Assembly (NCBI GenBank): GCA_012513815.1
Contig: JAAZBM010000007.1
Span: 22,153-86,152 of the forward strand
Length of the DNA stretch: 64,000 bases
From: Candidatus Sumerlaeota bacterium
GTDB taxonomy: Bacteria; Sumerlaeota; Sumerlaeia; Sumerlaeales; Sumerlaeaceae
Direction of reading: 5' to 3'
Part shown: positions 4,032-44,610 of the stretch, in pieces
How positions within the stretch are numbered: position 1 is the first letter of the stretch
Layout: each line of letters starts with the position of its first letter
Notes under the pieces: model-generated
Told to the model about the DNA's origin: nothing
What the model saw: only the letters and a program-made list of their open reading frames with translations
The model's database searches: none
Program-made: the position numbers and the translations under genes

Positions 4032-4124
<93 letters not shown>

Positions 4125-17047: not shown

Positions 17048-17353
17048 ATGAATTTATCAAATACGAATATTGATGCGGAGTTTGACCTCGAGGCGCTCGA
17101 AAAAGAGCTTGACGGGGCCGGTGAGGGCTGGGCTGTTTATTTGCATAATGATGATGACCACGAGATGGTCGAAGTCACAAATCAACTCATGCTGGCGCTT
17201 GATTGCGACTCCACGCAAGCATGGCGTATTATGATGAAGGCGCACACAAATGGTGTCGCGCTTGTGATTATTACCGGCAAATCTGAGGCGGAAAAAATCG
17301 CCGATGTTTTGCGAGAAATTAAACTGAAAGTTGATGTAGAGTCTGTCGCATGA
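17048..17353 (+). CDS. clpS: ATP-dependent Clp protease adaptor ClpS
   Basis: The ClpS core is WAVYLHNDDDHEMVEVTNQLMLAL..STQAWRIMMKAHTNGVALV. Length is 101 aa. Confidence 0.9.
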   Translation: MNLSNTNIDAEFDLEALEKELDGAGEGWAVYLHNDDDHEMVEVTNQLMLALDCDSTQAWRIMMKAHTNGVALVIITGKSEAEKIADVLREIKLKVDVESVA

Positions 17354-17949
17354 AACACTTATTGTTTGCTCCGGCAGCCATTGGCTGCTTTCTTGCCATG
17401 ACGGCGCCTGCCGGTGTTGTGGCCCAGTATTTGTCCCCGGAGGTGGAAACCCAGATGAAGCTCCACAGCTGTCCGGAATACCCTGCGGGGCCTGTCACAG
17501 AGGCCGATGTTGCCGGTCTTATTCCTGATAATATGCCGGGACATGTCATGGTTAAGTGGAAGCTCGAGAGCCAAGAGAATACTTATGGCTTCAACATTTA
17601 TCGCTCGACGACGGGGCCTAATGGCAAGTATATCAAGGTGAACCCGTGGATGATTCCCGGCGATGGAACGACGAACGTTCCCAAGGTTTATTGCTTCAAT
17701 GACACGCCGACGACTCGCGGCATGACGCTGCATTATTATATTGAGGAAGTCACGATGGATGGCACAAGCGCTATTGTTGAGGGAACCATGGGGACGAAGG
17801 TGACGGTGAAGTCTGTTGCTAACGAACGCGCTTGGCTTCTGCGCAAAATCAATGGCGCGGCGGGGAATGCCGTGACGACCGGCACGGCAACGGCGGCCGC
17901 GGATAAGACCACGACGGCCGCGGACGGTGTGAGTTCGGCGACAAAGTAG
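17350..17949 (+). CDS. Secreted hypothetical protein (FN3-like core, Thr/Ala-rich tail)
   Basis: The signal peptide is MKHLLFAPAAIGCFLAMTAPAGVVAQ. The core carries VKWKLESQENTYGFNIYRS. The start overlaps the clpS stop (ATGA at 17350-17353). Confidence 0.6.
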   Translation: MKHLLFAPAAIGCFLAMTAPAGVVAQYLSPEVETQMKLHSCPEYPAGPVTEADVAGLIPDNMPGHVMVKWKLESQENTYGFNIYRSTTGPNGKYIKVNPWMIPGDGTTNVPKVYCFNDTPTTRGMTLHYYIEEVTMDGTSAIVEGTMGTKVTVKSVANERAWLLRKINGAAGNAVTTGTATAAADKTTTAADGVSSATK

Positions 17950-17976
17950 AAGTTTGGTTTTTGGTTAGAAAATGAG

Positions 17977-18015
17977 AATCCGCCTTGCTTTTGGCAGGGC
18001 GGATTTCTTTATTTT
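17977..18015 (+). terminator. Rho-independent terminator (convergent-gene junction)
   Basis: A stem of about 12 bp, AATCCGCCTTGC / GCAGGGCGGATT (17977-18005, with one G-U pair), is followed by TCTTTATTTT. A second GC hairpin GGGGCGG/CCGCCCC at about 18031-18051 lies just after the giant-gene stop on the other strand. Confidence 0.7.
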
Positions 18016-18073
18016 CAGGTGTTTCGGTTGGGGCGGTATTTAGCCGCCCCTTCCGTTTTCTGCGATGGGACTG

Positions 18074-21000
18074 TTAGAACAGTTCCCATGTGTCGACTGC
18101 GGAGTATCTTCTGTATACTCCCTCAACGAGTGTCGTCGTGCCGGCGGTTACCGATACCGTTTGAGGTATAGGCGCTGCCCAACGTTTCTCGTAGATTTCG
18201 CGGAATACGACACCGTATGTTCCGGGCTTGAGATCAGTGATCGTGGCTCCGGATGTATGCCATGTCAATCCGCTGTCGATGCTCCACGCTGCGCCATCCG
18301 CGACTGCATCCCCAGGCGAGATGCTGACGCTGATTGCTCCGAGGATCTGGGTGTAAGTTGCCTTGACCTCGTAGATTTGCACGTCGGTAGCGTCGACGGT
18401 CTTGTCTTCAGGTTTCGTCCAGCCTTCCACATCGTTGAACTTAACGGTGTATGTATTGCCGGAGTCGACTTTGATTGCCGTTCCGCTCTGGTACGATGTT
18501 GTGAAGTTGTCAATTGACCAGCGTGACTCTGCAGGTCCATTGATGTTCACGATGAGGGTTGCTTTGCTCTTTGTGTAGATTCCCGTGAGAATGAGTTTCT
18601 CGGACGAGGTTACATCGGCAAGCATATCCTCAGGCTTATCGTATCCGGCGACGCTCTTGAATGTTACCGTATATTGGTCAACGGGGACATTCTCTTCGAC
18701 TTCGCCAGACTTATGCCATTCGCCGGCAGCGGCCTTGTAAGGCGCACCCTTGACGAGCATCCATCCGGCTCCCTCGACAACGGCTTCAGGTTCGATGTTC
18801 ACCTGTACGGATCCAATGATTCTGGTATATGAATCATCGGCCAGTATGATTTCGGTGAGCTGGCTCTTGTCGCCGACGAATGAGAGCGGTGCGGGTGTGT
18901 TGTAACCCGTGACATCTTTGAATGTCACGAATGTTTCTTCGGAATCGAAGACTTCCGCTGTTGCATCATTGTCGAACCATGTTGTGCCGCCATCGACGCT
19001 CCACTGAGCACCTGCGGGGGCATTGCCAAGGTTGACCTTAACGAAGGCGATACGTTTGTAGACACCCATGTTACGGTCAGACGATACGCCGTACATCATG
19101 TCGCCAAGGTTGGCGTCTTTGATGACGACTGCGTCGTTGTAGAGTCCGGGGACGTTGGCAGCGGTCGTCAGTGTCTGGAGAAGCTCGCCTGTATCCGCAT
19201 TGTAGATGGACAGGCTTTGCTTTCCGCCACCGCCGCAACCGGATGCATGCGTCAGGGTGTTGTCGGCCTTGTTGTAGAAGAGACCGCCATTACCTGCTGC
19301 GCCGGCTGGGTTTGCGAACTCGCTGACGGTGACATTGCTGTAGTCGCTTGCGACGAAGGTCACCTTGTAGATGGTCTTGTATCCGTTTGCGAGGATAAAC
19401 AATGTATCGTTACCCTTTGCCGCGATGTCGCGAGCGTGATCGGCGACTCCATCAACTGTCAGGTTGAGCGTTTCGTCGTTCTTGACCAATCTAACAGACT
19501 TCTTGCTAGCCATGAAGAGTTGCGGCAAGACAACCGTTCCATCTTCAAGGACTGCGTTGCACTGGAGTCTGTCGACCGGACCAACGATGTACTTACCGCC
19601 GTCGCGCCATGTCGTATCGAGTGTACCGTCGGTCTTGAACTTCAGGGTTTCCTGAGGCGAACCGGCGCTACCATCGATTGTGACGACGACGCCACCATCG
19701 GTTGTCTGCGAGAGTCCGAGATAACCGTTTGTATTGGCACCCCAATCCGGTGTCTCGGTGTTACGGTTACGCGACGCAAGCAACGTTGCCTCTGTCGGGG
19801 CAATCTTGCCATTGGCTGCGAACTTGATAACAGCCGCAGTCTTCTGAGCATCGCCCAACGCGCCGTAGCCACCGATATAGAGGTTGTTTTCGCTATCGGC
19901 TGCGATGTGCGATGAGCTAACGGTCGCGTTGATGCCGTTCAGCGAGTAAGCACCATAGAGTTTCCATGGGACGAACTCTTCGATTTCCGTGTACTGTGCG
20001 GTCGTCTCGTAGCTGTCACCTTCGTCGATTGTGAAGTACTGAAGCGCAGGTGCTGCGTATCCGTTGACTCCCTTGAAGCTCAGGACGAAATCTCCTGCGT
20101 CAAGGTCTGTCACGGTCTGACCGCTCTCGTACCATGTTGTCCCACCATCGACTGACCACGCCGCGCCCGCAACGACTGCTTCTTCGGGTGACAAGGTCAC
20201 CTTCAGTGAGTCAATCTTCTTGTGGACGAATTGTGCTTCGATGGTGTGGTTTGCTCTGACGCGCTTGAACTCGTAGGAGGTCACTGCGCCCACAGACTCG
20301 CCATCGACAAGGACATCGGCAAGGTTGTAGCCTTCGGAGACAGCGATTGCGTATGTTTGCGACTCGTCATAAGCCAGTGTCTTTTCGCCCACAGGCTCGA
20401 TGGTGCCGCCAACATTATCTTTAACGCTTGCCGTCACTGTGTACTGTTTCATTCTGAGGAACGCCTCGACGGTATGAGTTGCTTGGACATCCTCAAATGT
20501 CACCGTAGTTGTCGGTGCGACTTCGACGCCATCGACCTTCAGGAGATAAACCTCATAAGGATCAATTGGGTTGTAAGCCGGGTCGACATCTTCGGTTGTC
20601 TTCGGTGTAATGACAACGGTGAAATCTGTGTCTTGCGGTACGTTCGTTGTCGGAGTGATTGTTGCCATATCTTCCGTGCAAGAGGTACTAACCTCGAAGC
20701 CGCGGAGGATACTCAGATTACTAATCTGAATCATGTCGGGTAGAGCAGAAGCACTGTCGGAACCCAATTTCATGTAGACGGAGCGGCCACTATACAACGG
20801 ATGTTGATTTGTGAACTCGACTCCCTGCGCTGCCAAGTCGGCAAAGGTCAGCGGCGTGACGCCATCGGCGGCAAACAACTGGTCTCCAATCTTCTTGGCG
20901 TTGAACGCGCTGTAGTCATTATCGGTATCTTCGACGAACTCGGTACCGTTCCAGATGTAGCCGACGCCGAACGAGTTAATCTCGTCAGCCTTCAGCGTTG

Positions 21001-24000
21001 CATAGTTCAGTTCCGCACCCTTTGCCGCTGTGAAGTTCTTCGCGGCGACGGGGATGATCATCGACTTATCAGCAGAGATAATAAGGAAGTTCGTGACAGG
21101 CCACATATCATCATGACCAGCGAAGATTTCCTCATTAATGTTGAATGAGAAGATACCGAAGTCGCTCAACTTGCACTCACTCAATCCCTTGTTGTAGATT
21201 CCGGCGGTTGCGCCGTCAAAATCAAGCAATAAGTTATGAGCGGTTGCGCTTTGAGCGCGAATTGAAGCGATGTGGTTCGCAACGACACTGGTTTCGGAAC
21301 TTATCCAATCACCGGCCATTGTCATGGCGTGGAAATCGGCAATCTTCACTGTCGGGTTCGTCACCTTCACCGTGGCGGGCAATGCTTCCGTAGTTGTCGG
21401 ACCACCAACCAGCACGATGTAGATTCCATAACCGGCCTTGCTAGCGCCACCGCCAACCGTGGGAGGATATTCACCCGCGGGCGGCGTTGCGATGGTCAGA
21501 TGACCGATGTCGGAGAGAACCAGACGAGCGGCAGTGGAGCCAGCTGCGTCACGAGTCATATAAGTACCGGCGTCGACACCGCGGAATTCGGGCGTCATCC
21601 AGCCGAGATTCCCGACTGTGCGTGGGCCAGCCTCGTAGACGAGGAAGTCGGCGTTCTGCAAGTCATAGAACCCGTTCATGGTATCATTGCTACCTTGATA
21701 GTACTTGTCGATGCTCAACAATGCGTAGTGTCCTTCGCCATCGGTGACCCAGACATTGAAGTATGTCTCATAGTCTGTAGTCGCTTCGGCTGTCCAGCTA
21801 ATCTCGAAGATATCGTTGAGTTTCATGCCGTTGAAGTCGCGAGACCCGAATCCAATCTTCTTGGTTCCGTAATCGGTGAATCCGGCGGTGATGCCATTTT
21901 CAATCAACTCGTAGCTATCGTCGCCCGAACCGGACGGACGGATGCAATGTCCGCCCCAGAATCCCGAAACAGGTGTCAGCGTTACGGTCTCCTCGACCAG
22001 TTCGCCGCTTGCGCCCTTGACGATGACAGGTTCGCCTGCCCAACCACTGATTGTGTCGTTGAAGGTGATAACCTGATCGACGTCGCAGAGTGCCTTAGCG
22101 GTCTGCCCACTTGCGTACCATGTTGTGCCGCCATCGAGGCTCCACTTGGCACCATTGACAGGTGCGTAGGCGGGTTCGAGGGTGACCTTGATGTCGCAGT
22201 AGATTGTCTTGTAGGCCGAGGCGGGGACCTCGTAGGTTGTGTTACCGTCAATTGTTACGTTGATCGGCGCAGGAACCTCGTAGCCCTCGACTGTCGAGAG
22301 TGTTACGGTCGCAATCGACTTATCGAAGACTTCCACCGATGCCATGCTGTCGTTCCAAGTTGTACCGCCATCGATGCTCCACTTTGCACCTTCGGGGCAC
22401 TGACTCAGGTCGACGGTCAGGGCTACGGTGTGTTTGTAGACGGCGATCTGCTTGTCAGAAGATACCGCATACATCATGTCTCCGTTGACTGCGTCTGGGA
22501 TGACCACCACATCATTGTAGGTAGCGGGAACTTCCGCACCGCTCAGTGACTGCACCAACTCGCCAGTTTCGGCGTTGTAGATGTTGATGCTCTGCTGACT
22601 GGAGGCTGCGCCCACTGTCGCATGAATGAGTGTGTTATCCAGTTCGTGGAAGTACAAGCCGCTGCGTGTGCCGGCGTTCGTGGGTTTCACGAATTCGGTC
22701 ACTGTCGCGTCTGCGAGTGTCGTTCCATTGAAGAGGACCTTGTAGATTGTTGTGTCGTTGTCGGCAAGGATGAACATTGTGTTCGACCCCATGACGACGG
22801 CGTCACGTGCGTAGTTGTTAATGTCGCCTTCGACAGCCATGTTGGTAATGACCACGTTGTCTCCGTCTTGTTCGACGAAGCGGATTGACTTGTTGTCGCC
22901 AATCATGAGGCGTGGAAGTGCCAGTGTGCCGTCTTCAAGGACTGCGTTAGCTTGGAAGCGTGGGGCTTCGGCGGTAACATCATAGATACCGTCTACGGCC
23001 CAGTCTGTGTCAACCTCGCCACCGTTCTTGAGCTTCAATGTGAAGGCAGGCGATGAAGCCGCGCCGTCCATTGTCGCGAAGATGCCGCCATCGGGTGTCT
23101 GGCTCAGGCCAAGGTAACCATTGGTCAGAGCTTCGCCCCATGCGCTGCGGACGCCGACCAGTTCGACTGTCTCGGGTGCTGTTGCGCCGTTGGCTGCGAA
23201 CTTCAGGAGTGCCGCGTCGGATTGCGAGGTGCCACCGTAGCCATAACCGCCGATGTAGATGTTCTTATCTGCGTCAGCAGTGATATGTTGCGTCGAGGCT
23301 GTCGCATTTGTCAAGCCAGCAAGTGAATAGGTTCCGAAGAGCTTCCACTGTGCGTAGTTGATGAGGCGTGTGTATTCTTTGTCGAATGTCTGGGGTTCGC
23401 CCACTACTACCGTTACCGGGAAGCTATCGGGCGCTTTGAATCCAGCCACGGACTTGAATACGATTAGATAGTCGTCAGGCAGCAAGTAGACTTTGTCTCC
23501 ACTGTTGTGCCATGGACCACTGAGCGATGTGCTCCACTGTCCTTGTGAGGTTCCGGTGATGTTGATTGTCACCGAGCCGGCTGCTGCGAATGTCACGCTA
23601 ATCTGGTGGTCAGCCTTTACCTCTGTGAAGGTGTATTCGGCCACCGCGCCGACGGACTCGCCGTCGACCGTGACATCGCTAATGATGTAGTCTTCATTCG
23701 CGGCAATCGCGAAGCTCTGGTCTTCGCCGTAGTTAACGGTGACGTCACCCGAAGGTGTAATCGTGCCGTTCTCACCGGCGCTTGCGGTAATCGTGAATGT
23801 ATCAATCGCGAACTCGACCGCAATCGTATGATCCGCTGCCACATCTTCAAATGTGTAGCTGTCAGCGACTGTGACTTCAGCTCCGTCAACGACCACCTTG
23901 GATACATGGTAACCGGTGTTGGCTGCGAAGTCGAAGGTCTGGTCGGCGCCGTAGTTAACGGTGACGTCACCCGAAGGTGTAATCGTGCCGTTCTCACCGG

Positions 24001-27000: not shown

Positions 27001-30000
27001 TAAACGTGCAATCTTTAATCATGACCTTGGTCTTTATAGGTGCAGGTGAACGTGTGGAGCCAAGCGCGTCTTCGGTGTAGACATACAGACCCTTGTCACC
27101 GCCGGTGACCGTCAGACCAACCAGTTCGGCTGATGTCGAATAGGCTATAGTCGAGCGTTTCGCCTGAGGGCTTTGGACGTTGGCAACAACGATACCAAGG
27201 CCGCCATCAGGAACGGTAACAGTTCCACCTTCGATTCTGGCTGCGACGTCTCTATATGAATACTCATAGGGAGGACCCCAAGGTGAATAGTACTTGGTTC
27301 TGTCACTAATCAGAATACCGATATCATTATTAGTGAAGGTGTTGTTGAGCATCTTCGGGTATCCGTTGAAGATTTTGTATGAGTACATATCAACGCCACA
27401 TTCATTGTTTTCGACAACGTTATTCTCGAAGGTGACTCTGTCGCCATCCGCATATGACCAAACGGTGAGACCGCATGGAGTATGACTAATCGGGAACTGG
27501 CCTCTGCCTGTGATTGTGTTATTACTGATGATAAGTTCAGCAGCTTTCACACCACCACTGGGAAGCGAATGGTTGAAGCGAATACCAACGCCGCAATCCA
27601 CAATCGTGTTGCCATTGACATACTGTTTGTAGTCAACGGCCGTGCCGGTCGGGCTGCCGTTCAAGTTTTCGAACGCCATTGCCAACCAGCAGTTTTCGAA
27701 CTTATTGTCGATGGCATCGAACTCGCAGTTATTGGTAGAAATCGCGCCAATGTAAGCAATCTCGGAGAAGTAGTTATCCTTCACCAGAATGCCGTTAGCG
27801 GCGTCCGTAGCATTGCGTGTCGCGCAAAAGGCATACACACCGGCCGTGTTGAAGTTGGACAGACGGTTGTTCGTCAGAACGACATTCACATCCGCGTTGT
27901 CCAAACCTACGAAGTAAGGAACAAGACCGGCTGAAAGACCATCGTTCAAATCAGGATTAATCATCGGATCACTGTTCATGCCATTGAGGCTCAAACCGGA
28001 AACGGTGACATCACGAGAAAGGATGTCAATCATGTCGGCACCAGAGAAGTCTGGGAAGTTTGCGATGTCGGCCTTAATGACAGCTTCAGCACCACGATCT
28101 TCAGCATAACCCTTCTTGTCCGAGTTCGGACCAAGGAGAGACAATGGCTTGTCAATCTCGATTGTTTCACTGATAAGGTACTCGCCGGCAGCCACGTGAA
28201 CGATATCACCTTCACGGGCGCAAGCAATACCGAACTTAACGGTCGCGAACGGATTTGCTTCGCTACCGTCGCCGGTCTCGTCACTACCCGTTGTTGCCAC
28301 GTACCAGTCGAGAATACCGGCTGTCTTGACAAAGACACCGCTTGCTTCGGTAATAATACCGGAAACCAGTTCGACTGTCTCCGACGCAGGTGCTGTCCAA
28401 CCACGAGGCGGCGCCTGGAAGCTTAACGTATAAGTTCCCGCGTCGGCCTTTACGGAAGCGCCACTGGCGTTCCAAGTTGTGCCGCCATCGATAGACCACT
28501 TCGCGCCGGCGGCGGCGGCTTCGGCCGGAGTCAGCGTTACGTTAATCTGTGCTCTTTCGACATATTCGGCGGTTGCGGTTGACTCGCCATCCTTGACGAT
28601 TGTCACGGATTGCGTGGCGGGTGTCGCGTAGATGTCGATGTCCTTGAAGATCAACGTATAATCGCCGAACGGAGCCGCGAGTGTCGCGCCGCTGTTCTGC
28701 CAGCCACTGTCGTAGGCGTCGCCACCGGCGATCTTCCACTGAGCACCAAGAGCGACAGCTTCCGAGGGAGTCAGCGTCACGGTCAGGTTACCGGTGCAAT
28801 AGCTGACGGTATCGTCCGCCGGGATGACCTTCTCCGCGGCCTTCGCCGGGTTCAAGAGCATGCCGTTGAACGTGCAACCTGTGTCAACCTTGACACTGGT
28901 TGCTGTGGTAGCGTCGACGCAGTAAGTACCATCACCAATCTCACCTTGCGTGAAGGAGCAATCTTTGATGGAGGCTCTTGCCTGACAACCAAGACCTGTT
29001 GGATCGGTAACTTGAACCGCAAGACCCTTTGCACCGCCAGTAAACGTGCAGTTCTCAAGATTGAGGTTCGCGTTAAACTTGCCCCAAGTCGTGAAGGATG
29101 TGTTAATTGTTGTTGACATGGCATCAACAAGAACACCTGTACCACCTGCCGGAATAGTGAAGCTATTTCCGGTGATGGTTTGATTCATGTTGGAACCCCA
29201 AGTCTTACCATCAGGGCCGCCGGAGTAATCAATGACGGTCGCGAAGCGAATACCAACTTCGTTATCAATGAAGTTGTTATTTCTCAAGTTAAGAGTCTGA
29301 GCACCCCACAAGGTCGCACCATACTTTTGGTTCTTGAATGTGTTATTCTCAATCGTAATAACATTAGTTTTGGGAATCAACGCATACATCAGGATACCAC
29401 CTGGTGTTAACGTAGTCTCATTACCAAGTGCGGGGTTGTAACCATCGAACGTGTTGTTACGAAGGACAAACTCGCTTGTCCTAGACTGAGAAGGCCAGTT
29501 GTTGTAACGGAAGCCAATGAAGCAGTCAACAGTAAGGTTATTTTCGAAGTACTGCTTGTAATCGGCGGGAGTATCCTCGCACTGACCGATAGACTTTTCT
29601 AAAACAAGTCCAATACGGCAGAGTTCAGCCTTATTGTTACGGACATTCATATCCACATTTGCATCACTGACGAAGCCAAACCAAGCATTCGTCACGTAGT
29701 TACCAACAGCCTCAATACCATTAGCATGGTTCGCACCAGCATAGGATGGACTAAAGGAGTAAACACCGGCATCACCCATATTGCTGAATCTGTTATTCAA
29801 GATGTTGATATTGGCAGAGGGATGCTCGCCTGTCAAGTAGATCAAGAGACCATAAGCGATACCTGTATAGCCATCAAGGAAGTTGTCGTTCTGACCGTCG
29901 AGTTCGAAACCACTGAAGGTCACATCTTCAGAAGTAATTTCAACCATAACTCCTTCAAGCATGTCGGGCAGAGCCGGTTTCAACAACGCTTCAGCGCCGC

Positions 30001-33000
30001 GATCCTCGGCAAAGCCGGTCTTGTCCGCATTCGGACCAACAACCGTCAATGGCTTGTCGATGAACAACGTATCGGACAAGATATACTCACCAGCGGCCAC
30101 GTGAATGGTTTCGCCTTCGCGAGCACATTCAACCGCGAACGCAATCGTCGCTAACGGATTTGCTTCGCTACCGTCGCCGGTCTCGTCACTACCCGTTGTC
30201 GACACGTACCAGTCGAGAAGTTCGCCGGTCGCTGTGTAGACGCCACTAACCTGTGCGGTTTCGCCACGAACGACCGTAGCGGACGCATCGGCGGGAGTTA
30301 TCCAGCCACGTGGGAGATCCTTGAACATAATCAGATAGTCGCCTTCGTCAAGCTTGGCAATACCGCTGGTACGCCAAGTCTGGCCACCATCGAGACTCCA
30401 TCTTGCGCCAGCCGCGGCGGCTTCTGTCGGAAGCAACGTCACCTCCAACTGACCTTTTTCAACATAGGTTCCTGTGGCGGTCTTCGAATCGCCGACATTC
30501 ATATTAACCAAGCGCGACGAGGGAGTCGTGTAGAACGGAATGTCTTTGAAGCTCACTGTGTATCTGCCGAACGGCACCGAAAGTGCGACGCCGCTGTCAA
30601 GCCAGCCACTGTCGAAAGCATCGCCACCGGCGATCTTCCACTGAGCACCGGCCGCGATAGCTTCCGCGGGAACAATCGTCACGGTTTCGGTACCGGTCAT
30701 ATAACTGACTGTTGTCGCATCGTTCGGGATGACCTTCGCCGCGGCCTTCGCCGGGTTCAAGAGCATACCGTTAAACGTGCAACCTGTGTCAACCTTGACT
30801 TTTTGGTCAACAGCAGAAACAACTGTTCCACTCGTCATCACTTCGACGCAGACAGTACCATCACCGGTCGTACCTTGTGTGAAGGTGCAATTCTTGATTG
30901 TCACATCATTCGTGAGCGTCCAGCTTTGCGCAACACCACCATCTTCAGCATAGACAAGCAGTCCCTTGTCACCGCCGTTGACGGTAATGCCATCGAAGAC
31001 ACAATTGACACCGAGAGCATAGCCACTCGCTACGAGTTGGGAAATGGTCGAAACAACAATACCCTTGCCACCATCGGGGACGGTAATCGTGCCGCCCTCA
31101 ATGCTGAACTTAAAGTTCATATAAGTAAAGCCACCATAAATGTAACGAGTACTGGCAAGAATACCAATGTCGTTGTTCTCTAATGTGTTATTGCGAATCG
31201 TCGGCCACTTGGGACCTTCGTGGACATAATCGCTACCAGGATTATTGAATGGAGCTAGTCCAACTTCTTTGTTACGAATTATGTTATCCTCAATGATAAC
31301 AACATCGCCGGGACGGAATGCCCAAGTCGTGATACCAGCGTGTGTATAACCCCTTGTCACACCATTGGTAATGTTACTCTTGCCAAATATCGTATTCTCA
31401 GCGATATAAAGTGGATACTTGCGGTGAGTAAATGAGGAATGGTTGTAACGAACACCGGCATCACAATTCTTGATGGTGTTACCTTTGATATACTGAGCGT
31501 AGTCAATAGGCATACCGGTCGGAGCTTCTGCAACACTTTCAACTGCGACACCAAAGATGCAATTCTCGATGAAGTTATCGTATGCGTTTAAATCGCAGTT
31601 GTTAGTTGAAACTAAACCTATATATGCTATATTAGCAATATAGTTATCCTTCACCAAGATGCCGGTAGCAGCATGCGCAGCTGATGGTGCTGGAGTGCAG
31701 GTATAGACACCACCCGTGTTGAAGTTGATGACACGATTGTTCGTCAGAACGACATTCACATCCGCGTTGTCCAAACCTACGAAGTAAGGAACAAGACCGG
31801 CACAAAGACCATCGTTCAAATTAGGATTAATCAGCGGGTCACTATTCATACCATCAAGAGTCAAACCGGAAATGGTGACATCACGAGAAACGATGTCAAT
31901 CATGTCGGCATTAACGAAGTCTTGGAAGTTTGCGATGTCGGCCTTAATGACAGCTTCAGCACCACGATCTTCAGCATAACCCTTCTTGTCCGCGTTCGGG
32001 CCAAGGAGAGCCAATGGCTTGTCAATCTCGATTGTTTCACTGACAAGGTACTCGCCGGCGGCCACATAAACAATATCACCTGCACGGGCGCAGTCAATCG
32101 CGAACGCAATTGTCGCGAACGGATTTGTTTCGCTACCGTCGCCGGTCTCGTCACTACCTGTGGTCGCGACGTACCAGCTCAACGTGCTGGGGTCTTCCGT
32201 ATAGGTTGCAGACTCTTCGATTGTCGCATCAGTTGTAATAGTCACAGGAATAGCAGTAGGTGTCACCCAACCGTGAACAGATTTAAATGTCACAGTATAG
32301 GAGCCAGTATTTATGTTAATCGAACTTCCACCGGCATTCCATGTGGTTCCGCCATCAACGCTCCATGCGGATTTTGTCGGGCCTGTGATATTCACTTTCA
32401 ACGTGCCCATATCGCGAGCGAATGTAGCCGCGATGGTGTGGTCGGCGGTCACGTTCTCAAATGTATAGCTTGTGGCAGCCGTCACTGTTGTGCCGTCAAC
32501 CACTAGGCTTTCGATATGATAATTCGTCGCGGGCGTGATTGTGAAGGCAAGGTCATCGCCATAGTTCACAGTCTGTTCGCCATTCGGAGAAATAGTACCG
32601 TTTTCACCGGCGGTTGCTGTCACCGTAAATGTCTTAATCGCGAAGGTAGCTGCAACTGTGTGAGTTGCGGCGACGTTTGTGAAAGTATATGTTGCCGTAG
32701 GTTCAACCTCAACGCCGTCAACCGTCAGGCTGGCGATATTGTAGCTCTCAAGCGGCGTAATCGTAACCGTGTAGTCTTCGCCCTCGGGAGCGTTCGTGGT
32801 CGGCGTGATGCTGCCGCCCTCTCCGCAACTGGTCGTGATGGCGTAGCCGCGCTTGACACTCATATCAGTCGCCACAATCATATCGGGCATTGCGAGACCG
32901 ACACTCTGACCAAAGTCAATTGTAAAGCTTTGATTTGGATACCAAGGATGGTTGCTTGCAAACTCAACATCTTGCGCAATCAAATCACTAAAGGTTAAGG

Positions 33001-34426
33001 GTGTATCATCGTCAATATTAAACAACCTCTCGCTTTGACCAGCCATTTTCTTTGCGCCAATCGCGGAATAGTCATTAGTCGTGTTCTTGACATACTTACT
33101 CTGAGCTTCGTCCCAAATGAAGCTCGAGCCCCAGTTATAAACCTGTGTGTCGGCAAGAAGCTCCGCATAATTGAGCGACAGGCCTTCACGATTCAGGAAA
33201 TCCTGAGGCGAAATGGGAATAACGAGTTTCTTGTCTTTATCGGTAACGAACATTCGCATCGTAGGCCAAACATCATGATGCTCAGCAAACAAGTTTTTGT
33301 CAACGTTAAACGAGAACTTACCGAAGTCACTTATCTTCAGCCCGGCAAGACCCTTATTATATGCGGTCACCTTTGCGCCGTTGTAGTCAATCAAGACACT
33401 CAACCCATTGGCAGCCGTCGGACGAATCGAAGGAAGATGATTCGCGACATTAGTTTCGTTTTGAGCGAACCACTCACCGGCGGCAATCGACTCAGTGTAG
33501 TTATACTTCGTCACCGCGACATTCGCAATCTCAACTTCTTTCGGCGTAACACCACTTGCGCCTTGTCCACCGACGAGCACACAGTAAACACCGTAACCGG
33601 CTCTGCTAGCACCAGTGCCAACCGTCCCGGGATATCCACCCACAGGAGGAACATCAATCGTCAAATGAGAAATGTCAGCCATAACAAGCTTGCTTGTCCC
33701 GGCGGCATCACGTGTCATGTAGTAACCCGCGTCCGGAGCAACATTTACCCCGCGCATTTCCGGAGTCATCCAACCAAGATTCGCGACGCTGCGTTCCCCA
33801 GCCTCGTAAGCAATAAACGGACTGTTGAGGAATTCATAACGATCTGTCTCTGTTTCATCAGAACCAACCAGATACTTCGAGGCGCAAAGCAACGCGTAAT
33901 GACCGGAGCCATCAGTTACCCAAATGTTGTAGTAAACCTGATAAGTGCCAACCGTGCCCGGGCGTTCCCAATTAATGCCGGCAAACTCGCCGAGAGTCAT
34001 CCCGTTATAGTCACGCGTACCATAACCAATCTTCTTCGTACCGTTATCGATAAAGGTCGCCTTTACACCATTCGCGGTCTTCGTAAATTGACCATCACCA
34101 CGAATCGAATGCGCACCCCAATAACCCACAACAGGAGTTAAGGTCACGTTCTGAACTGACGTATCCGTAAGCTCCACAGCCTGATTTGCCGCAGTCCAGC
34201 CGCTATCGGCAGCGTTGAACTTGACGGTGTATGTGCCGGGATCCAACGTAGCCGTGTCGCCACTTGCATACCACGTTGTTCCATCGTCGACTGTCCACTT
34301 GGCGCCGTTCACAGGCGCGTAGGCAGGCTCAAGATTCACCGTCAACGAAGCCGCGTTCGCTGAACCACAACAACAAGTGACCAATAATGCCACCGCTACA
34401 ACTAAAGATTTGATATGTTTAAACAT
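18074..34426 (-). CDS. Giant secreted mosaic protein (5,450 aa): 4 right-handed beta-helix modules, 17 small beta-sandwich-like repeats, 9 InlB-B-like repeats, 2 unknown ~430-aa modules and 2 propeller-like modules
   Basis: The frame is open across 18074-34636. AGGAG plus ATG at 34426 gives the Sec signal MFKHIKSLVVAVALLVTCCCGSANA/AS. The motif WYV[AS]TTGSDETGDGSE[AT]NP[FL]AT[IV] (a beta-helix N-cap) occurs 4 times. The motif A.W[ST].DGGTTW..SG.....G.Y...FK...G[WY]..P occurs 17 times. GENGTITPSGEVTVNYG..Y.....VDG......SYTF..V..DHTI.V.FA occurs 9 times. Confidence 0.9.
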   Translation of the reverse strand: MFKHIKSLVVAVALLVTCCCGSANAASLTVNLEPAYAPVNGAKWTVDDGTTWYASGDTATLDPGTYTVKFNAADSGWTAANQAVELTDTSVQNVTLTPVVGYWGAHSIRGDGQFTKTANGVKATFIDNGTKKIGYGTRDYNGMTLGEFAGINWERPGTVGTYQVYYNIWVTDGSGHYALLCASKYLVGSDETETDRYEFLNSPFIAYEAGERSVANLGWMTPEMRGVNVAPDAGYYMTRDAAGTSKLVMADISHLTIDVPPVGGYPGTVGTGASRAGYGVYCVLVGGQGASGVTPKEVEIANVAVTKYNYTESIAAGEWFAQNETNVANHLPSIRPTAANGLSVLIDYNGAKVTAYNKGLAGLKISDFGKFSFNVDKNLFAEHHDVWPTMRMFVTDKDKKLVIPISPQDFLNREGLSLNYAELLADTQVYNWGSSFIWDEAQSKYVKNTTNDYSAIGAKKMAGQSERLFNIDDDTPLTFSDLIAQDVEFASNHPWYPNQSFTIDFGQSVGLAMPDMIVATDMSVKRGYAITTSCGEGGSITPTTNAPEGEDYTVTITPLESYNIASLTVDGVEVEPTATYTFTNVAATHTVAATFAIKTFTVTATAGENGTISPNGEQTVNYGDDLAFTITPATNYHIESLVVDGTTVTAATSYTFENVTADHTIAATFARDMGTLKVNITGPTKSAWSVDGGTTWNAGGSSININTGSYTVTFKSVHGWVTPTAIPVTITTDATIEESATYTEDPSTLSWYVATTGSDETGDGSETNPFATIAFAIDCARAGDIVYVAAGEYLVSETIEIDKPLALLGPNADKKGYAEDRGAEAVIKADIANFQDFVNADMIDIVSRDVTISGLTLDGMNSDPLINPNLNDGLCAGLVPYFVGLDNADVNVVLTNNRVINFNTGGVYTCTPAPSAAHAATGILVKDNYIANIAYIGLVSTNNCDLNAYDNFIENCIFGVAVESVAEAPTGMPIDYAQYIKGNTIKNCDAGVRYNHSSFTHRKYPLYIAENTIFGKSNITNGVTRGYTHAGITTWAFRPGDVVIIEDNIIRNKEVGLAPFNNPGSDYVHEGPKWPTIRNNTLENNDIGILASTRYIYGGFTYMNFKFSIEGGTITVPDGGKGIVVSTISQLVASGYALGVNCVFDGITVNGGDKGLLVYAEDGGVAQSWTLTNDVTIKNCTFTQGTTGDGTVCVEVMTSGTVVSAVDQKVKVDTGCTFNGMLLNPAKAAAKVIPNDATTVSYMTGTETVTIVPAEAIAAGAQWKIAGGDAFDSGWLDSGVALSVPFGRYTVSFKDIPFYTTPSSRLVNMNVGDSKTATGTYVEKGQLEVTLLPTEAAAAGARWSLDGGQTWRTSGIAKLDEGDYLIMFKDLPRGWITPADASATVVRGETAQVSGVYTATGELLDWYVSTTGSDETGDGSEANPLATIAFAVECAREGETIHVAAGEYILSDTLFIDKPLTVVGPNADKTGFAEDRGAEALLKPALPDMLEGVMVEITSEDVTFSGFELDGQNDNFLDGYTGIAYGLLIYLTGEHPSANINILNNRFSNMGDAGVYSFSPSYAGANHANGIEAVGNYVTNAWFGFVSDANVDMNVRNNKAELCRIGLVLEKSIGQCEDTPADYKQYFENNLTVDCFIGFRYNNWPSQSRTSEFVLRNNTFDGYNPALGNETTLTPGGILMYALIPKTNVITIENNTFKNQKYGATLWGAQTLNLRNNNFIDNEVGIRFATVIDYSGGPDGKTWGSNMNQTITGNSFTIPAGGTGVLVDAMSTTINTSFTTWGKFNANLNLENCTFTGGAKGLAVQVTDPTGLGCQARASIKDCSFTQGEIGDGTYCVDATTATSVKVDTGCTFNGMLLNPAKAAEKVIPADDTVSYCTGNLTVTLTPSEAVALGAQWKIAGGDAYDSGWQNSGATLAAPFGDYTLIFKDIDIYATPATQSVTIVKDGESTATAEYVERAQINVTLTPAEAAAAGAKWSIDGGTTWNASGASVKADAGTYTLSFQAPPRGWTAPASETVELVSGIITEASGVFVKTAGILDWYVATTGSDETGDGSEANPFATVKFGIACAREGDIVHVAAGEYLISETIEIDKPLSLLGPNSDKKGYAEDRGAEAVIKADIANFPDFSGADMIDILSRDVTVSGLSLNGMNSDPMINPDLNDGLSAGLVPYFVGLDNADVNVVLTNNRLSNFNTAGVYAFCATRNATDAANGILVKDNYFSEIAYIGAISTNNCEFDAIDNKFENCWLAMAFENLNGSPTGTAVDYKQYVNGNTIVDCGVGIRFNHSLPSGGVKAAELIISNNTITGRGQFPISHTPCGLTVWSYADGDRVTFENNVVENNECGVDMYSYKIFNGYPKMLNNTFTNNDIGILISDRTKYYSPWGPPYEYSYRDVAARIEGGTVTVPDGGLGIVVANVQSPQAKRSTIAYSTSAELVGLTVTGGDKGLYVYTEDALGSTRSPAPIKTKVMIKDCTFTQGEVGDETVCVEVGTSGTLISPLDQTVKVDTGCTFNGMLLNPAKAVAKVIPNDTTTVTYYTGDLTVTLAPQEAITAGAQWKIAGGDAYDSGWKNSAEQLAVPAGDYTITYKDIEFFATPAPRFMHIDKDGTFTATGTYVAKSQIKVTLLPQGATYNGAWSIDGGTTWYKSGEIAKVDAGFYPVTFKPVYGWIAPSEQEVEVNEGETAEATATYTPAAGVLDWYVATTGSDETGDGSEANPFATIPFAVECAREGEIIHVAAGEYIFNEEVSIDKALTILGPNATLPAYAVDGNGVKSFPNTDRTAEAVLVNNMPCVTEEESVFGISTRDVTISGFTFDGLDVGSVGIKVSFAPGVYIGNANINLTNNIVKGISCYGYLVQYTGSGEAQYSSNGILAQGNYFTDNFMGILAYNNVVLDIVDNLAENTTYAYRYEFYTNATPAGTITDCNVTGNSANNVHVGLMYNEACGGPGSGYHFNIKDNVFTQGYRYISSPRLPVVGLYLTTLGKNDDLVLDNNSVDGFEVGVEVNDIYGISNPIIQNSTFTNNTFGARVSTVQCWVNCIRAYATFNNCQFIDNETGFEVRGYYASATIPGNATAFLNDCTITGGNTGLNMVYDNNGGTAVGTATAGIKNCVFSQGVDLDGKYCVNALSENVSVKVDTGCTFNGYTLNVAKSAEKQKVVPADDTVSYYTGTETVTLEPAEAVTAGAQWKIAGGDAFDSGWLASAAMATVPVGGEYTISFKDVDGWIAPDEIEDVAITKDGTSQHSASYNPVISASAGENGTITPAGEVEVAYGEAQTFNFAPSTGYHVSKVLVDGTEVTIADSYTFEDVAVPHTIAVEFAIDTFTITASTGENGTITPSGEVTVNYGADQTFNFAANTGYHVAKVLVDGAEVAIADSYTFEDVVADHTIAVEFAIDTFTITASASGNGTITPSGEVTVNYGADQTFAFAKDTGYHIAKVVVDGAEVTIADSYTFTDVVANHTIAVEFAIDTFTITASTGENGTITPSGDVTVNYGADQTFDFAANTGYHVSKVVVDGAEVTVADSYTFEDVAADHTIAVEFAIDTFTITASAGENGTITPSGDVTVNYGEDQSFAIAANEDYIISDVTVDGESVGAVAEYTFTEVKADHQISVTFAAAGSVTINITGTSQGQWSTSLSGPWHNSGDKVYLLPDDYLIVFKSVAGFKAPDSFPVTVVVGEPQTFDKEYTRLINYAQWKLFGTYSLAGLTNATASTQHITADADKNIYIGGYGYGGTSQSDAALLKFAANGATAPETVELVGVRSAWGEALTNGYLGLSQTPDGGIFATMDGAASSPAFTLKLKNGGEVDTDWAVDGIYDVTAEAPRFQANAVLEDGTLALPRLMIGDNKSIRFVEQDGDNVVITNMAVEGDINNYARDAVVMGSNTMFILADNDTTIYKVLFNGTTLADATVTEFVKPTNAGTRSGLYFHELDNTLIHATVGAASSQQSINIYNAETGELVQSLSGAEVPATYNDVVVIPDAVNGDMMYAVSSDKQIAVYKHTVALTVDLSQCPEGAKWSIDGGTTWNDSMASVEVFDKSIATVTLSTVEGYEVPAPINVTIDGNTTYEVPASAYKTIYCDIKVTLEPAYAPVNGAKWSLDGGTTWYASGQTAKALCDVDQVITFNDTISGWAGEPVIVKGASGELVEETVTLTPVSGFWGGHCIRPSGSGDDSYELIENGITAGFTDYGTKKIGFGSRDFNGMKLNDIFEISWTAEATTDYETYFNVWVTDGEGHYALLSIDKYYQGSNDTMNGFYDLQNADFLVYEAGPRTVGNLGWMTPEFRGVDAGTYMTRDAAGSTAARLVLSDIGHLTIATPPAGEYPPTVGGGASKAGYGIYIVLVGGPTTTEALPATVKVTNPTVKIADFHAMTMAGDWISSETSVVANHIASIRAQSATAHNLLLDFDGATAGIYNKGLSECKLSDFGIFSFNINEEIFAGHDDMWPVTNFLIISADKSMIIPVAAKNFTAAKGAELNYATLKADEINSFGVGYIWNGTEFVEDTDNDYSAFNAKKIGDQLFAADGVTPLTFADLAAQGVEFTNQHPLYSGRSVYMKLGSDSASALPDMIQISNLSILRGFEVSTSCTEDMATITPTTNVPQDTDFTVVITPKTTEDVDPAYNPIDPYEVYLLKVDGVEVAPTTTVTFEDVQATHTVEAFLRMKQYTVTASVKDNVGGTIEPVGEKTLAYDESQTYAIAVSEGYNLADVLVDGESVGAVTSYEFKRVRANHTIEAQFVHKKIDSLKVTLSPEEAVVAGAAWSVDGGTTWYESGQTVTDLDAGDFVLSFKGVNGYAAPALQYFTIDEGDSYETTAQYTEIEEFVPWKLYGAYSLNGINATVSSSHIAADSENNLYIGGYGALGDAQKTAAVIKFAANGKIAPTEATLLASRNRNTETPDWGANTNGYLGLSQTTDGGVVVTIDGSAGSPQETLKFKTDGTLDTTWRDGGKYIVGPVDRLQCNAVLEDGTVVLPQLFMASKKSVRLVKNDETLNLTVDGVADHARDIAAKGNDTLFILANGYKTIYKVTFVASDYSNVTVSEFANPAGAAGNGGLFYNKADNTLTHASGCGGGGKQSLSIYNADTGELLQTLTTAANVPGLYNDAVVIKDANLGDMMYGVSSDRNMGVYKRIAFVKVNLGNAPAGAQWSVDGGTTWFDNDATAEVFDSEETFVTFKDVTGYNTPAPLSFVGDKSQLTEIILADDSYTRIIGSVQVNIEPEAVVEGAGWMLVKGAPYKAAAGEWHKSGEVEENVPVDQYTVTFKSVAGYDKPEDMLADVTSSEKLILTGIYTKSKATLIVNINGPAESRWSIDNFTTSYQSGTAIKVDSGNTYTVKFNDVEGWTKPEDKTVDATDVQIYEVKATYTQILGAISVSISPGDAVADGAAWSIDSGLTWHTSGATITDLKPGTYGVVFREIYEKRWAAPIPQTVSVTAGTTTLVEGVYRRYSAVDTWELF
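18077..19050 (-). repeat. Four C-terminal beta-sandwich-like repeats plus the terminal tail ..AVDTWELF
   Basis: The four repeat cores are GAQWSVDGGTTWF, GAGWMLVKG..GEWHKSG, ESRWSIDNFTTSYQSG and GAAWSIDSGLTWHTSG. The protein ends in YRRYSAVDTWELF and then stop. Confidence 0.7.
19055..19975 (-). repeat. Giant protein module P, copy 2
   Basis: It runs from FVPWKLYGAYSL through NLYIGGYGALG, AAVIKFAANG, GYLGLSQTTDGGVV and LKFKTDGTLDTTW to MMYGVSSDRNMGVYKR. Confidence 0.55.
20700..21975 (-). repeat. Giant protein module A, copy 2
   Basis: It runs from TPVSGFWGGHCIRPSG through YFNVWVTDGEGHYALL, NLGWMTPEFRG and GYGIYIVLVGG to ISNLSILRGF. It is collinear with copy 1, and I estimate roughly half the residues are identical by eye. 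Confidence 0.6.
22430..23360 (-). repeat. Giant protein module P, copy 1 (propeller-like, ~310 aa)
   Basis: It runs from YAQWKLFGTYSL through NIYIGGYGYGG, AALLKFAANG, GYLGLSQTPDGGIF and LKLKNGGEVDTDW to MMYAVSSDKQIAVYKH. The copy at 19055-19975 is collinear with it. Confidence 0.55.
23585..24685 (-). repeat. Five tandem 222-bp coding repeats (74-aa InlB-B-like domains)
   Basis: The landmark AGTTAAC recurs at 23731, 23953, 24175 and 24397, an exact 222-bp period. The protein units read DTFTITAS[TA]GENGTITPSGEVTVNYGADQTF.FA..TGYHV.KV.VDGAEV..ADSYTFEDV.ADHTIAVEFAI. Confidence 0.9.
24690..32180 (-). repeat. Array of four beta-helix super-repeats (~1.9 kb each: beta-helix plus 1-2 beta-sandwich domains)
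   Basis: The N-cap motifs map to about 32175, 30215, 28310 and 26340. Each helix ends with VKVDTGCTFNG[MY].LN.AK, at about 30750, 28860, 26880 and 24990. Modules 1 and 3 share DNA tracts of more than 60 bp that are identical (e.g. 31735-31801 vs 27866-27931). Confidence 0.8.
32850..34140 (-). repeat. Giant protein module A, copy 1 (unknown ~430-aa two-part module)
   Basis: It runs from TPVVGYWGAHSIRGDG through YYNIWVTDGSGHYALL, NLGWMTPEMRG and GYGVYCVLVGG to DMSVKRGY. A collinear copy lies at 20700-21975. Confidence 0.6.
34352..34426 (-). other. Sec signal peptide of the giant protein (25 aa, predicted cleavage after ANA)
   Basis: MFKHIKSLVVAVALLVTCCCGSANA has a basic n-region, a hydrophobic core and an AxA site. 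Confidence 0.7.
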
Positions 34427-34595
34427 GGGACTTTTCTCCTTTTGACCCTGTAATTTTACTGATTTCGTAATTAAATTTGAATGAATAGAAGCGTCGCAAA
34501 GCCGCAGTACATCAGGCTCTGCGCACCGTCGCTTTATCGAAGGCAAGTTTTCTGTATTCGGATTTAGAAAAAGCAAATTAAAACCTTCATCAAGT

Positions 34596-34636
34596 ATCAT
34601 AATGCACATATAGCAGATTTGCCACAATTTTGTCAA
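34596..34636 (-). promoter_or_regulatory. Candidate sigma70-type promoter and A-tract UP element for the giant gene
   Basis: On the minus strand a perfect TTGACA (34631-34636) is followed after 18 nt by TATATG (34607-34612). An alternative TATGAT lies at 34596-34601. A8-A9 tracts sit directly upstream (about 34640-34668). This implies a leader of about 170 nt before ATG 34426. Confidence 0.35.
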
Positions 34637-38450: not shown

Positions 38451-38526
38451 TGGTGGAGTGAAGGGGGTTCGAACCCCTGACCTCAGGCTTGCAAAGCCCG
38501 CGCTCTCCCAGCTGAGCTACCACCCC
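38451..38526 (-). tRNA. tRNA-Ala (anticodon TGC), CCA encoded
   Basis: The reverse complement is GGGGTGGTAGCTCAGCTGGGAGAGCGCGGGCTTTGCAAGCCTGAGGTCAGGGGTTCGAACCCCCTTCACTCCACCA. The G3:U70 identity pair is present and the anticodon loop is TTTGCAA. Confidence 0.95.
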
Positions 38527-44506: not shown

Positions 44507-44610
44507 TACTGTCAACCTCTTTTATGCTAATAATGACAATAATAAACCGCCGAAATTATTCGGAAAGTATAGCGAAGTTTGTCGCTTTATTTATCGACGC
44601 ACTCTCGGCG

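Follow-up and report, generated by a model that had tools for sequence, protein, structure and literature searches.

Planctomycetota and their relatives commonly encode very large secreted proteins, none of which is known to have a tested function. Planctomycetota often have very large genes (bioRxiv 10.1101/2023.11.21.568195), and in the Candidatus Menyafoubacter/PUNC01 clade of the PVC group an extracellular Sec/SPI protein of ~6,000 aa, with tandem CASH and internalin domains, has been predicted (PMC12057145). We analysed a stretch of 64 kb (hereafter the window) that contains a gene for a protein of 5,450 aa. This protein resembles the PUNC01 protein in size class, in several tandem CASH-type beta-helices and in internalin-type domains; the PUNC01 lineage occurs in anoxic digesters and, as in our case, the function of its protein is known by prediction only. 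PL6, RHS-toxin-like, TSP3, CglD-adhesin and disaggregase regions, as well as close orthologues in related MAGs, belong to the PUNC01 protein alone. Our protein has instead the modules termed here A, P and bS, and an exhaustive profile search with A returned no other protein that carries this module in full. This kind of protein has thus already been predicted in PVC bacteria (PMC12057145). The statement of the initial annotation that four beta-helices in one chain are unusual was overstated in view of this precedent.

Other described proteins share single traits with the one studied here. Giant Omnitrophota proteins (bioRxiv 10.1101/2023.11.21.568195) are likewise very large, repetitive, predicted to be at the surface and from the PVC group, but with at least 30,000 aa they are 6-15 times larger and contain many transmembrane segments together with SecA-like and antiparallel beta-helix parts. 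The threshold of West-Roberts et al. for "giant" (at least 30,000 aa) is not reached by our protein, whose 5,450 aa place it in the common class of 5,000-10,000 aa. Proteins with DUF1565, such as LIC10774 and LIC10365 of Leptospira and the GH120 xylosidase XylC (3vst), resemble its beta-helix modules in the cap and first turns, a part that matches DUF1565 above threshold in each module, yet these are proteins of 350-640 aa with a single beta-helix and not four. Finally, Listeria InlB B-repeat (Flg_new_2) proteins share the repeat type of its nine ~73-aa B units; unlike Listeria InlB, it is devoid of LRR, GW and LPXTG, its B units are probably spacers and its host has a Gram-negative-type envelope.

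Integrity of the gene and its predicted export signal

The minus-strand frame 18074-34636 is free of stop codons over 5,520 codons. The complete coding sequence including the stop codon (18074..34426; all features below are on the minus strand unless stated otherwise) encodes 5,450 aa with a mass of 579 kDa and pI 4.3, identical to database protein P0006. A ribosome-binding site AGGAG can be read at 34436..34440, with a spacer of 9 nt to ATG 34426. Frame, start and length are all as initially annotated. Chance alone cannot produce 5,450 codons without a stop.

Since the gene is repetitive, we considered whether it might be a chimera created by repeat collapse, or else a decaying pseudogene. 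In assembly ERZ795066, a patch of 18 SNPs in the third beta-helix module is an exact copy from the first one and adjoins a 69-nt exact repeat, so local short-read ambiguity does exist. However, this patch is in frame, the 5,450 codons are interrupted by neither frameshift nor stop, and the internal repeats are well diverged, with amino acid identity of 25-83% and a longest exact DNA repeat of 69 nt. Furthermore, the gene is 99.8-100% identical, with zero indels, across at least six metagenome assemblies (JGI 3300009671 and 3300009647; ENA ERZ795066, ERZ764778, ERZ27268616 and ERZ27268626; Logan SRR5007707), two of them complete over the gene and the rest spanning either 9.9 kb at its 3' side or a portion of its 5' side; some may be the same reads re-assembled. 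The other assemblies, coming from several samples and assemblers, agree in sequence and length. This recurrence without indels argues against an assembly artefact, and we consider both artefact and decay extremely unlikely.

Origin from a prophage or another mobile element was rejected, given a GC content like that of the neighbours and housekeeping genes on the flanks. Long antisense ORFs inside the gene were dismissed as genes because they have no significant family match; their single listing, zf-CCCH_12, scored 19.7 bits, below the cut-off of 27.

Upstream of the gene, an AT-rich gap of 465 nt contains a promoter-like TTGACA-18 nt-TATATG (34607..34636), a reading from the sequence that our promoter scan did not list because its rule demands T at the last position. 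Because this gap and promoter-like site lie between them, co-regulation of the gene with its glycan-related neighbours is not implied. At the other end, two GC-rich hairpins (17976..18050, without strand assignment) occupy the gap common to the large gene and the convergent gene 17350..17949; this is likely a terminator region serving both directions.

From ATG 34426 the N-terminus reads MFKHIKSLVVAVALLVTCCCGSANA followed by AS, that is, a basic start, then a hydrophobic core and then an A-x-A site. Translation and hydropathy delimit a signal peptide of aa 1-25 (34352..34426) with predicted cleavage between ANA and AS. This is the sole Kyte-Doolittle window above 1.6 in the 5,450-aa protein, which by the same measure contains no transmembrane segment besides it. 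The product therefore looks Sec-exported, as the initial annotation had proposed, and its signal peptide is probably cleaved. A lipoprotein reading was dropped, LVTC not being a canonical lipobox because of T at -1.

Small repeats and beta-helix modules

Internal HMMs, derived from the protein's own sequence, detected 17 bS, nine B, four beta-helix (bH), two A and two P modules and recovered exactly the order stated in the initial annotation. The same HMMs found no copy of any of the five module types in other ORFs of the window. The whole protein can be seen as a string of ~35 domains.

The most frequent unit, bS, is an unannotated, beta-sandwich-like repeat of ~78 aa with an Asp-box. Its copies were located by the internal HMM: bS1, the first of 17 of these small Asp-box-type repeats (34112..34351), bS2 (32177..32401), the pairs bS3-bS4 (30212..30685), bS5-bS6 (28307..28786) and bS7-bS8 (26336..26809), then bS9 (24683..24916), bS10 (23357..23575), bS11-bS12 (21962..22420), bS13 (19979..20206) and bS14-bS17 (18104..19042). 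Neither a profile scan of viral contigs nor a comparison with PDB sequences gave any significant bS match. The B units (~73 aa) are InlB B-repeats, as initially suggested, matching Flg_new_2 (PF18998) with 38.5 bits against a gathering cut-off of 23.6. They form three groups: B1-B2 (32402..32845; Pfam and internal HMM), B3-B7, five in tandem whose neighbouring blocks are 75-83% identical (23576..24682), and B8-B9 (20207..20698; internal HMM). Word-index searches with aa 1-750, with bH1 plus two bS and with P' plus four bS returned matches to B repeats or the bH cap, or none; these negatives are weak because the protein itself was never returned.

The motif WYV[AS]TTGSD, present at aa 751, 1406, 2041 and 2698, opens the four modules bH1 (aa 751-1247, 30686..32176), bH2 (aa 1406-1880, 28787..30211), bH3 (aa 2041-2539, 26810..28306) and bH4 (aa 2698-3170, 24917..26335), the last being the most diverged copy. 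DUF1565 (PF07602) matches all four at the N-terminal cap above its gathering cut-off of 20.3 bits, with 34.3 bits for bH1, 37.6 for bH2 and 29.3 for bH4; bH3 also holds the gene-conversion-like patch of ERZ795066. Beta_helix (PF13229) is found in bH2 only (35.0 bits against 25.9), and NosD (PF05048) stays just under its cut-off there (23.4 against 23.6 bits). bH1, bH3 and bH4 are homologous to bH2 over their full length. With DUF1565 above its cut-off in all four copies, the assignment of these modules to the DUF1565/right-handed parallel beta-helix type is supported at sequence level, in line with the beta-helix reading of the initial annotation. Self-comparison of bH gave weak internal repeats that are not significant (E 0.018-0.27).

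Comparison of the four copies revealed an uneven pattern of conservation. The centres of the modules are 25-50% identical, as against 65-85% for the module ends, and the N-terminal third of bH3 is ~80% identical to that of bH1, with identical codons. This codon identity means that the conserved ends are explained by gene conversion and do not point to an active site. The diverged centres between conserved ends suggest four different binding surfaces.

Homology of bH to outside proteins is confined to the N-terminal cap and ends after ~110-200 residues. Among PDB sequences the best match of the cap is the GH120 xylosidase 3vst (XylC; E 0.0033), followed by the phage tailspike 8fqc (E 0.0044), while the PL6 lyase AlyGC is not significant (E 0.14). 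The cap has a weak partial match to NF047854 (33-45 bits, cut-off 380), and bH2 gave one match in phage genomes, again at cap level.

These data bear on one side of the alternative put forward initially, a multi-enzyme. In the form considered here, each of the four beta-helices would be an active lyase or hydrolase of its own specificity, with A and P binding the substrate, and one chain would thus break down a complex glycan. Lyases and hydrolases often have the beta-helix (CASH) fold; for characterised GH120 enzymes Pfam lists only DUF1565 and Beta_helix (PMC12229491), and it is the XylC cap that is the best PDB match. The diverged centres could mean different substrates, three acidic residues of the helix body (E210, E219 and D231 in bH1 segment numbering, i.e. 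positions in aligned aa 745-1250) are invariant, and GHL10 and GH3 genes are located nearby. On the other hand, none of the catalytic beta-helix families PL1, PL6, PL9, GH28 and CE8 matches bH even at E up to 1, and Pect-lyase_RHGA_epim, which appears in that search, is below threshold. The GH120 catalytic region gives no significant alignment with bH, the PDB matches being restricted to the cap, and outside homology stops at ~110 residues. Invariant residues of the helix body are mostly Asn and Gly, i.e. structural ladder residues, and conservation of the ends, being explained by gene conversion, is no pointer to an active site. We therefore regard a multi-enzyme of this kind as rather unlikely.

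The A and P modules

Module A, deemed unassignable at first, turned out to be a tandem pair of one ~210-aa beta-sandwich domain, whose family is itself undescribed and is seen in PEP-CTERM proteins. The first half, A-N (aa 106-317, 33476..34111), was modelled by AlphaFold2 as an all-beta sandwich (pLDDT 82, pTM 0.84), and the second, A-C (aa 318-527, 32846..33475), is its diverged copy (hhalign 93.7%, E 1.9e-7). The second double-domain module, A' (aa 4156-4576, 20699..21961; internal HMM), is built in the same way and is 48% identical to A. Whole A, modelled from a two-sequence alignment, reached a pLDDT of 32.

An exhaustive search with the A+A' profile yielded 51 other clusters (E 2.7e-13 to 8.6e-4), all at profile positions 1-212; no protein with a complete A module and no outside match to the A-C half was found in it. 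The family has invariant K31, G35, N66, W68 and G171 and the signature GxKxGYGT ... PYxNxWVTDG ... GTGAPxxGxGFNxIFGDT. About 27-35 of the 51 clusters consist of a signal peptide, the domain and a PEP-CTERM-like anchor, by which sequence traits they are predicted surface proteins sorted by exosortase. These small proteins (P0007-P0057) share the ~200-aa domain and its signature with our protein, but they have 240-270 aa, one domain copy and a PEP-CTERM anchor, whereas our protein has four copies in two tandem pairs, with very diverged second halves, and no PEP-CTERM. In P0034 and P0053 the domain is fused to a beta-helix, and in P0054 to a dockerin and an SGL/NHL propeller, apparently the same domain partnerships as in our protein. 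With module A as query, a scan of genome contigs gave no relative and a search of PDB sequences nothing significant. Foldseek comparison of the A-N model with PDB and BFVD found weak neighbours only (TM 0.3-0.36, E at least ~1e-3), namely jelly-roll glycanases, carbohydrate-binding modules and lectins.

The propeller-like character initially ascribed to the P modules is only weakly indicated. SBBP (PF06739) matches one repeat per module, and only in P' (aa 4817-5128, 19043..19978, 50% identical to P) does it reach threshold (20.8 bits, cut-off 20.5); in P (aa 3691-4002, 22421..23356) it scores 15.9 bits, under the cut-off. WD40-like blade matches of P among PDB sequences are not significant (E at least 0.2), and self-comparison detected no significant internal repeat within P. 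A beta-propeller is thus a possible fold for these modules.

Surface attachment and proposed role

The C-terminal tail SAVDTWELF (18077..18103) contains neither a transmembrane segment nor a known sorting motif. PEP-CTERM is absent: PF07589 and TIGR02595 do not match and the C-terminus has no hydrophobic segment. An outer-membrane beta-signal was also considered and dropped, the alternating hydrophobic pattern being missing. Pfam and NCBIfam gave no signature of RTX, T1SS, autotransporter, LPXTG or T9SS, and neither a GGxGxD nor an LPxTG string is present. The initial remark that giant-adhesin hallmarks are lacking therefore holds, and the family scan by HMMs proposed with it matched no classical adhesin family. 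At curated thresholds, none of the modules falls into a characterised family of carbohydrate-binding or carbohydrate-active proteins.

As to the genomic setting, the window contains five GHL10 glycosidase-like genes and one GH3 gene, and the presence of NrdD/NrdG indicates that the organism, an uncultured one and probably a member of Planctomycetota, is an anaerobe. One neighbouring GHL10 enzyme ends in ...EYWEMF and another in ...EWVEYGF. In anaerobic, Phycisphaerae-like planctomycetes, the large protein could be the central part of a so far undescribed machinery that processes glycans outside the cell, combining on one chain four catalytically distinct bH depolymerases, A as a new carbohydrate-binding module and a C-terminal tag. 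A would then be a new carbohydrate-binding family common to exosortase-sorted surface proteins; the aromatic-acidic tail ...DTWELF could be a new recognition or sorting tag, and this tag could gather the protein and the GHL10 enzymes with the above endings at the cell surface. Taken as a whole, we hold this proposal to be decidedly unlikely.

Another possibility is a role in contact with other microbes, be it in adhesion to cells and their surfaces or as a weapon, with glycan metabolism uninvolved. Giant PVC proteins have been read as surface structures that serve predation or target cell walls (bioRxiv 10.1101/2023.11.21.568195; PMC12057145), the bH cap resembles that of the phage tailspike 8fqc, surface proteins of pathogens carry InlB-type repeats and DUF1565, and Cwp19, one characterised member of GHL10, acts on peptidoglycan as a lytic transglycosylase (PMC6016235). 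The occurrence of DUF1565 in Leptospira surface proteins would also count against a glycan reading. However, Pfam and NCBIfam detected no toxin, RHS, peptidase, lysozyme or membrane-insertion domain in the protein, a transmembrane anchor is missing and the window shows no sign of a predatory lifestyle, which makes such a role unlikely.

On balance, we think it probable that the gene encodes a Sec-exported, acidic and anchorless beads-on-a-string protein, an extended adhesin or scaffold, extracellular or loosely attached, with many sites for glycans or particulate organic matter. Of the two options offered in the initial annotation, this favours the adhesin scaffold; the multi-enzyme lacks direct support, no catalytic family having been matched. 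In this scaffold, 26 small beta-sandwich repeats (17 bS and nine InlB-B) would serve as spacers between eight larger globular modules, namely four right-handed beta-helices, two double A modules and the two P modules as possible propellers. The many sites would bind complex polysaccharides or particulate organic matter, and some bH modules may also cut the bound ligand. The gene presumably grew through segmental duplication inside itself, and its module ends may still be homogenised by gene conversion.

Should the bH modules prove catalytic, they would add new activities for polysaccharide degradation from anaerobic digesters; otherwise, the protein would be one more large bacterial adhesin. 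In either case it offers a clean study case, being complete, reproducibly assembled, of a size that allows expression one module at a time and composed of modules that can be separately cloned. The unnamed A domain, present in small PEP-CTERM proteins, gives easy access to the question of which ligands such proteins have, and the intragenic gene conversion seen here shows how repeat proteins get reshaped.

The giant gene and its recovery from other assemblies

The gene lies in a minus-strand frame that is open for 5,520 codons (18074-34636). An AGGAG at 34440-34436 is followed, after 9 nt, by ATG 34426, and translation from this codon gives the N-terminus MFKHIKSLVVAVALLVTCCCGSANA|AS, a textbook Sec signal by prediction; nowhere else in the protein does the Kyte-Doolittle mean over 19 residues exceed 1.6. 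Gene callers applied to other assemblies chose in-frame upstream starts (5,508 or 5,511 aa), and that of one other assembly also picked ATG 34426. We prefer the latter because the upstream starts put the signal peptide about 60 residues inside the product. The resulting protein has 5,450 aa, 579 kDa and a pI of 4.3, with Thr, Ala, Gly, Val, Asp and Asn abundant. A 465-nt AT-rich gap containing a TTGACA-18-TATATG site precedes the gene, and two hairpins at its 3' end are common to a convergent gene.

Look-up of two neighbouring proteins located the locus in samples from JGI (3300009671, 3300009647), ENA (ERZ795066, ERZ764778, ERZ27268616, ERZ27268626) and Logan (SRR5007707). Some of these assemblies may have been built again from shared reads, but the set spans several samples and assemblers. 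Taken together, the sequences retrieved span the entire gene at 99.8-100% identity to the window with zero indels, so that the single giant gene proposed in the initial annotation is not an assembly artefact. The longest exact DNA repeat within it measures 69 nt. There is one local exception to the cross-assembly identity: ERZ795066 carries 18 substitutions inside the third beta-helix module (bH3, window 27932-28053), at a site that adjoins the 69-nt repeat, and within this patch it matches the corresponding part of bH1 exactly. The patch arose by gene conversion in the sampled population or else from short reads that were locally mis-threaded; in both cases the reading frame is kept.

Three long ORFs run antisense within the gene, all on the plus strand, at 23606-25585 (659 aa), 21272-22549 (425 aa) and 33035-34141 (368 aa). 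None has a significant family match (the 659-aa ORF reached 19.7 bits with zf-CCCH_12 against a cut-off of 27, the other two matched nothing), and we regard them as probable shadow frames, produced by the codon composition of the giant gene, rather than as genes.

Module architecture

Module HMMs built from single-copy seeds and iterated on the giant protein itself recognized 17 small sandwich-like repeats (bS), nine InlB B-repeats (B), four beta-helix modules (bH) and two copies each of modules A and P. Their order, SP, bS, A, 2B, bS, [bH, bS, bS]x3, bH, bS, 5B, bS, P, bS, bS, A', 2B, bS, P', 4bS and a 9-residue tail, agrees exactly with that first read from the translation. Chunked self-BLAST revealed two large segmental duplications inside the protein, pairing aa 28-744 with aa 4079-4814 (40-51% identity) and aa 3506-4122 with aa 4624-5256 (41-49%).

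The assignment of A is the principal new result. When 1.84 billion cluster representatives were searched exhaustively with HMMER, the A/A' profile was matched over its full length only by the giant protein itself (P0006, an identical database entry). Profile positions 1-212 matched 51 clusters (P0007-P0057), mostly of 240-270 aa proteins, about 27-35 of which consist of a signal peptide, the domain and a PEP-CTERM-like anchor. The family shares the signature GxKxGYGT, PYxNxWVTDG, GTGAPxxGxGFNxIFGDT; in the window, the domain (about 200 aa) occupies 33476-34111 and 21329-21973. In a few proteins it is joined with a beta-helix (P0034, P0053) or with a dockerin and an SGL/NHL propeller (P0054). 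The second half of A had zero outside matches in the same search; it aligns to the A-family profile with a probability of 93.7% (E 1.9e-7), so that each A module consists of two tandem copies of a single domain. AlphaFold2, given a 39-sequence alignment, models the first half of A as an all-beta sandwich (pLDDT 82, pTM 0.84). Foldseek found no close structural relative of this model; its weak matches (TM 0.3-0.36) were jelly-roll glycanases, carbohydrate-binding modules, lectins and phage tail proteins. Neither Pfam nor NCBIfam has a model for the domain. A had initially been called unassignable; the module now resolves into a pair of beta-sandwich domains.

All four bH copies match DUF1565 above threshold. 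Additional matches of bH2 are Beta_helix and, approximately at its threshold, NosD, and precomputed annotations of the locus also assign Pel9A-like_beta_helix. Against the PDB, the four-copy profile matched through the cap only: GH120 xylosidase XylC (3vst, E 0.0033), phage tailspike gp124 (8fqc, E 0.0044) and PL6 AlyGC (E 0.14). Aligned by profile to its best database relatives, bH likewise loses similarity after about 110 residues, and no catalytic beta-helix family matched bH, even with E up to 1. Because outside matches stop at the cap and no catalytic family was found, bH is best described as a predicted beta-helix module whose cap is standard and whose remaining body is an orphan. It is possible that these modules are catalytic, given that GH120 enzymes are indistinguishable from them to Pfam (PMC12229491), although the present analysis yielded no evidence of catalysis.

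Aligned bH copies are 65-85% identical at their ends and 25-50% at their centres. Of 136 residues shared by bH1 and bH3 over their first 180 columns, 121 also have the same codon; among shared residues, the proportion is 76-89% in the last 60 columns of bH1-3 and about 42% in the centre. Conservation of the ends is thus due to gene conversion at least as much as to selection; codon-level identity supports their concerted evolution, while the centres are free to diverge.

B is a divergent InlB B-repeat (Flg_new_2). bS belongs to no Pfam family; a BNR/Asp-box match below threshold is seen in eight of the 17 copies, a perfect SxDxGx[TS]W motif in nine, and single copies faintly match PKD, CarboxypepD_reg or SpaA, which fits, as a tentative assignment, a small Ig-like or prealbumin-like sandwich. 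For P, described at first as propeller-like, one SBBP repeat scores 20.8 bits in P', at the threshold of 20.5, and falls short of it in P; neither the WD40-like 'SLSIYNAETGEL' blade motif nor any internal repeat in P is significant, and a propeller is a guess.

Genomic setting

The window is chromosomal, with flanking genes including ArgRS, malate/lactate dehydrogenase, NrdD/NrdG, TruA, ClpS, Kup and ClpB; the presence of NrdD/NrdG indicates an anaerobe. ArgRS is nearest to Tepidisphaeraceae/Tepidisphaerales MAGs (54-60% identity), followed by other Planctomycetota. Judged by ArgRS alone, we place the source, with moderate confidence, in Planctomycetota, probably Phycisphaerae.

Five GHL10 (PF02638) paralogues, all on the minus strand (34891-37692, 40469-42496, 42500-44515, 58224-59702, 59735-61768), and one GH3 gene are found in these 64 kb. 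A CarboxypepD_reg domain is present in four of the five, and the 933-aa GHL10 protein has a 600-residue N-terminal part without family. Characterized GHL10 substrates are peptidoglycan for Cwp19 (PMC6016235) and starch for DogH (PMC9967864). The giant protein terminates in ...SAVDTWELF (window 18077-18103), and two paralogues in ...ASVEYWEMF (42500-44515) and ...GEWVEYGF (40469-42496). The six frames of the window contain 236 stop-to-stop ORFs with a length of 80 aa or more, and of these only the giant protein and the ...EYWEMF paralogue have a [WYF][ED]x0-2F ending; their ...WELF/...WEMF ends, seen within the window, may be a common C-terminal tag.

Upstream of the giant gene, between an FAD oxidoreductase gene and the 933-aa GHL10 gene, a GspG-like prepilin-type protein with an N-terminal methylation motif is encoded (37740-38285, minus strand); a tRNA-Ala gene lies at 38451-38526. 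Shortly after tRNA-Ser (4032-4124) comes a fluoride riboswitch (RF01734, 4257-4333, plus strand; 36.9 bits, gathering score 34). A 1,322-aa ORF (8983-12951, minus strand) matches no Pfam family and is only faintly GspN-like; it adjoins the genes for a response regulator (13059-13475) and two further proteins, one of 433 aa that is weakly Wzz-like and one of 430 aa that has no assigned family.

Novelty and proposed function

Published work on Candidatus Menyafoubacter describes a Sec/SPI protein of about 6,000 aa with tandem CASH and internalin domains (PMC12057145), and very large genes are frequent in Planctomycetota (bioRxiv 10.1101/2023.11.21.568195); the general kind of protein is therefore known, by prediction only. 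New, as far as sequence comparison tells, is the specific mosaic: a complete A module was found in no other protein. That the giant protein is an orphan is supported by the exhaustive A/A' search only: word-index homologue searches never listed the giant protein itself, though P0006 is in the representative library, and their negatives need caution. Also new are the unnamed A domain family and its tandem use, the bS repeat, and the signs of ongoing intragenic conversion.

Larger PVC proteins have been suggested to act in cell-cell contact or predation, and the giant protein could conceivably do so too. The interpretation we favour is that it is exported and extended and has many predicted binding sites. 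This view is based on the predicted CASH-type fold of bH, the tie of the A family to surface proteins, the recurrence of A-type domains beside beta-helix, dockerin and propeller domains elsewhere, and the glycan-degrading nature of the organism. As spacers, the 26 small sandwich domains would separate eight larger modules, which would bind polysaccharide or particulate substrate, and the four diverged beta-helix centres would provide different specificities.
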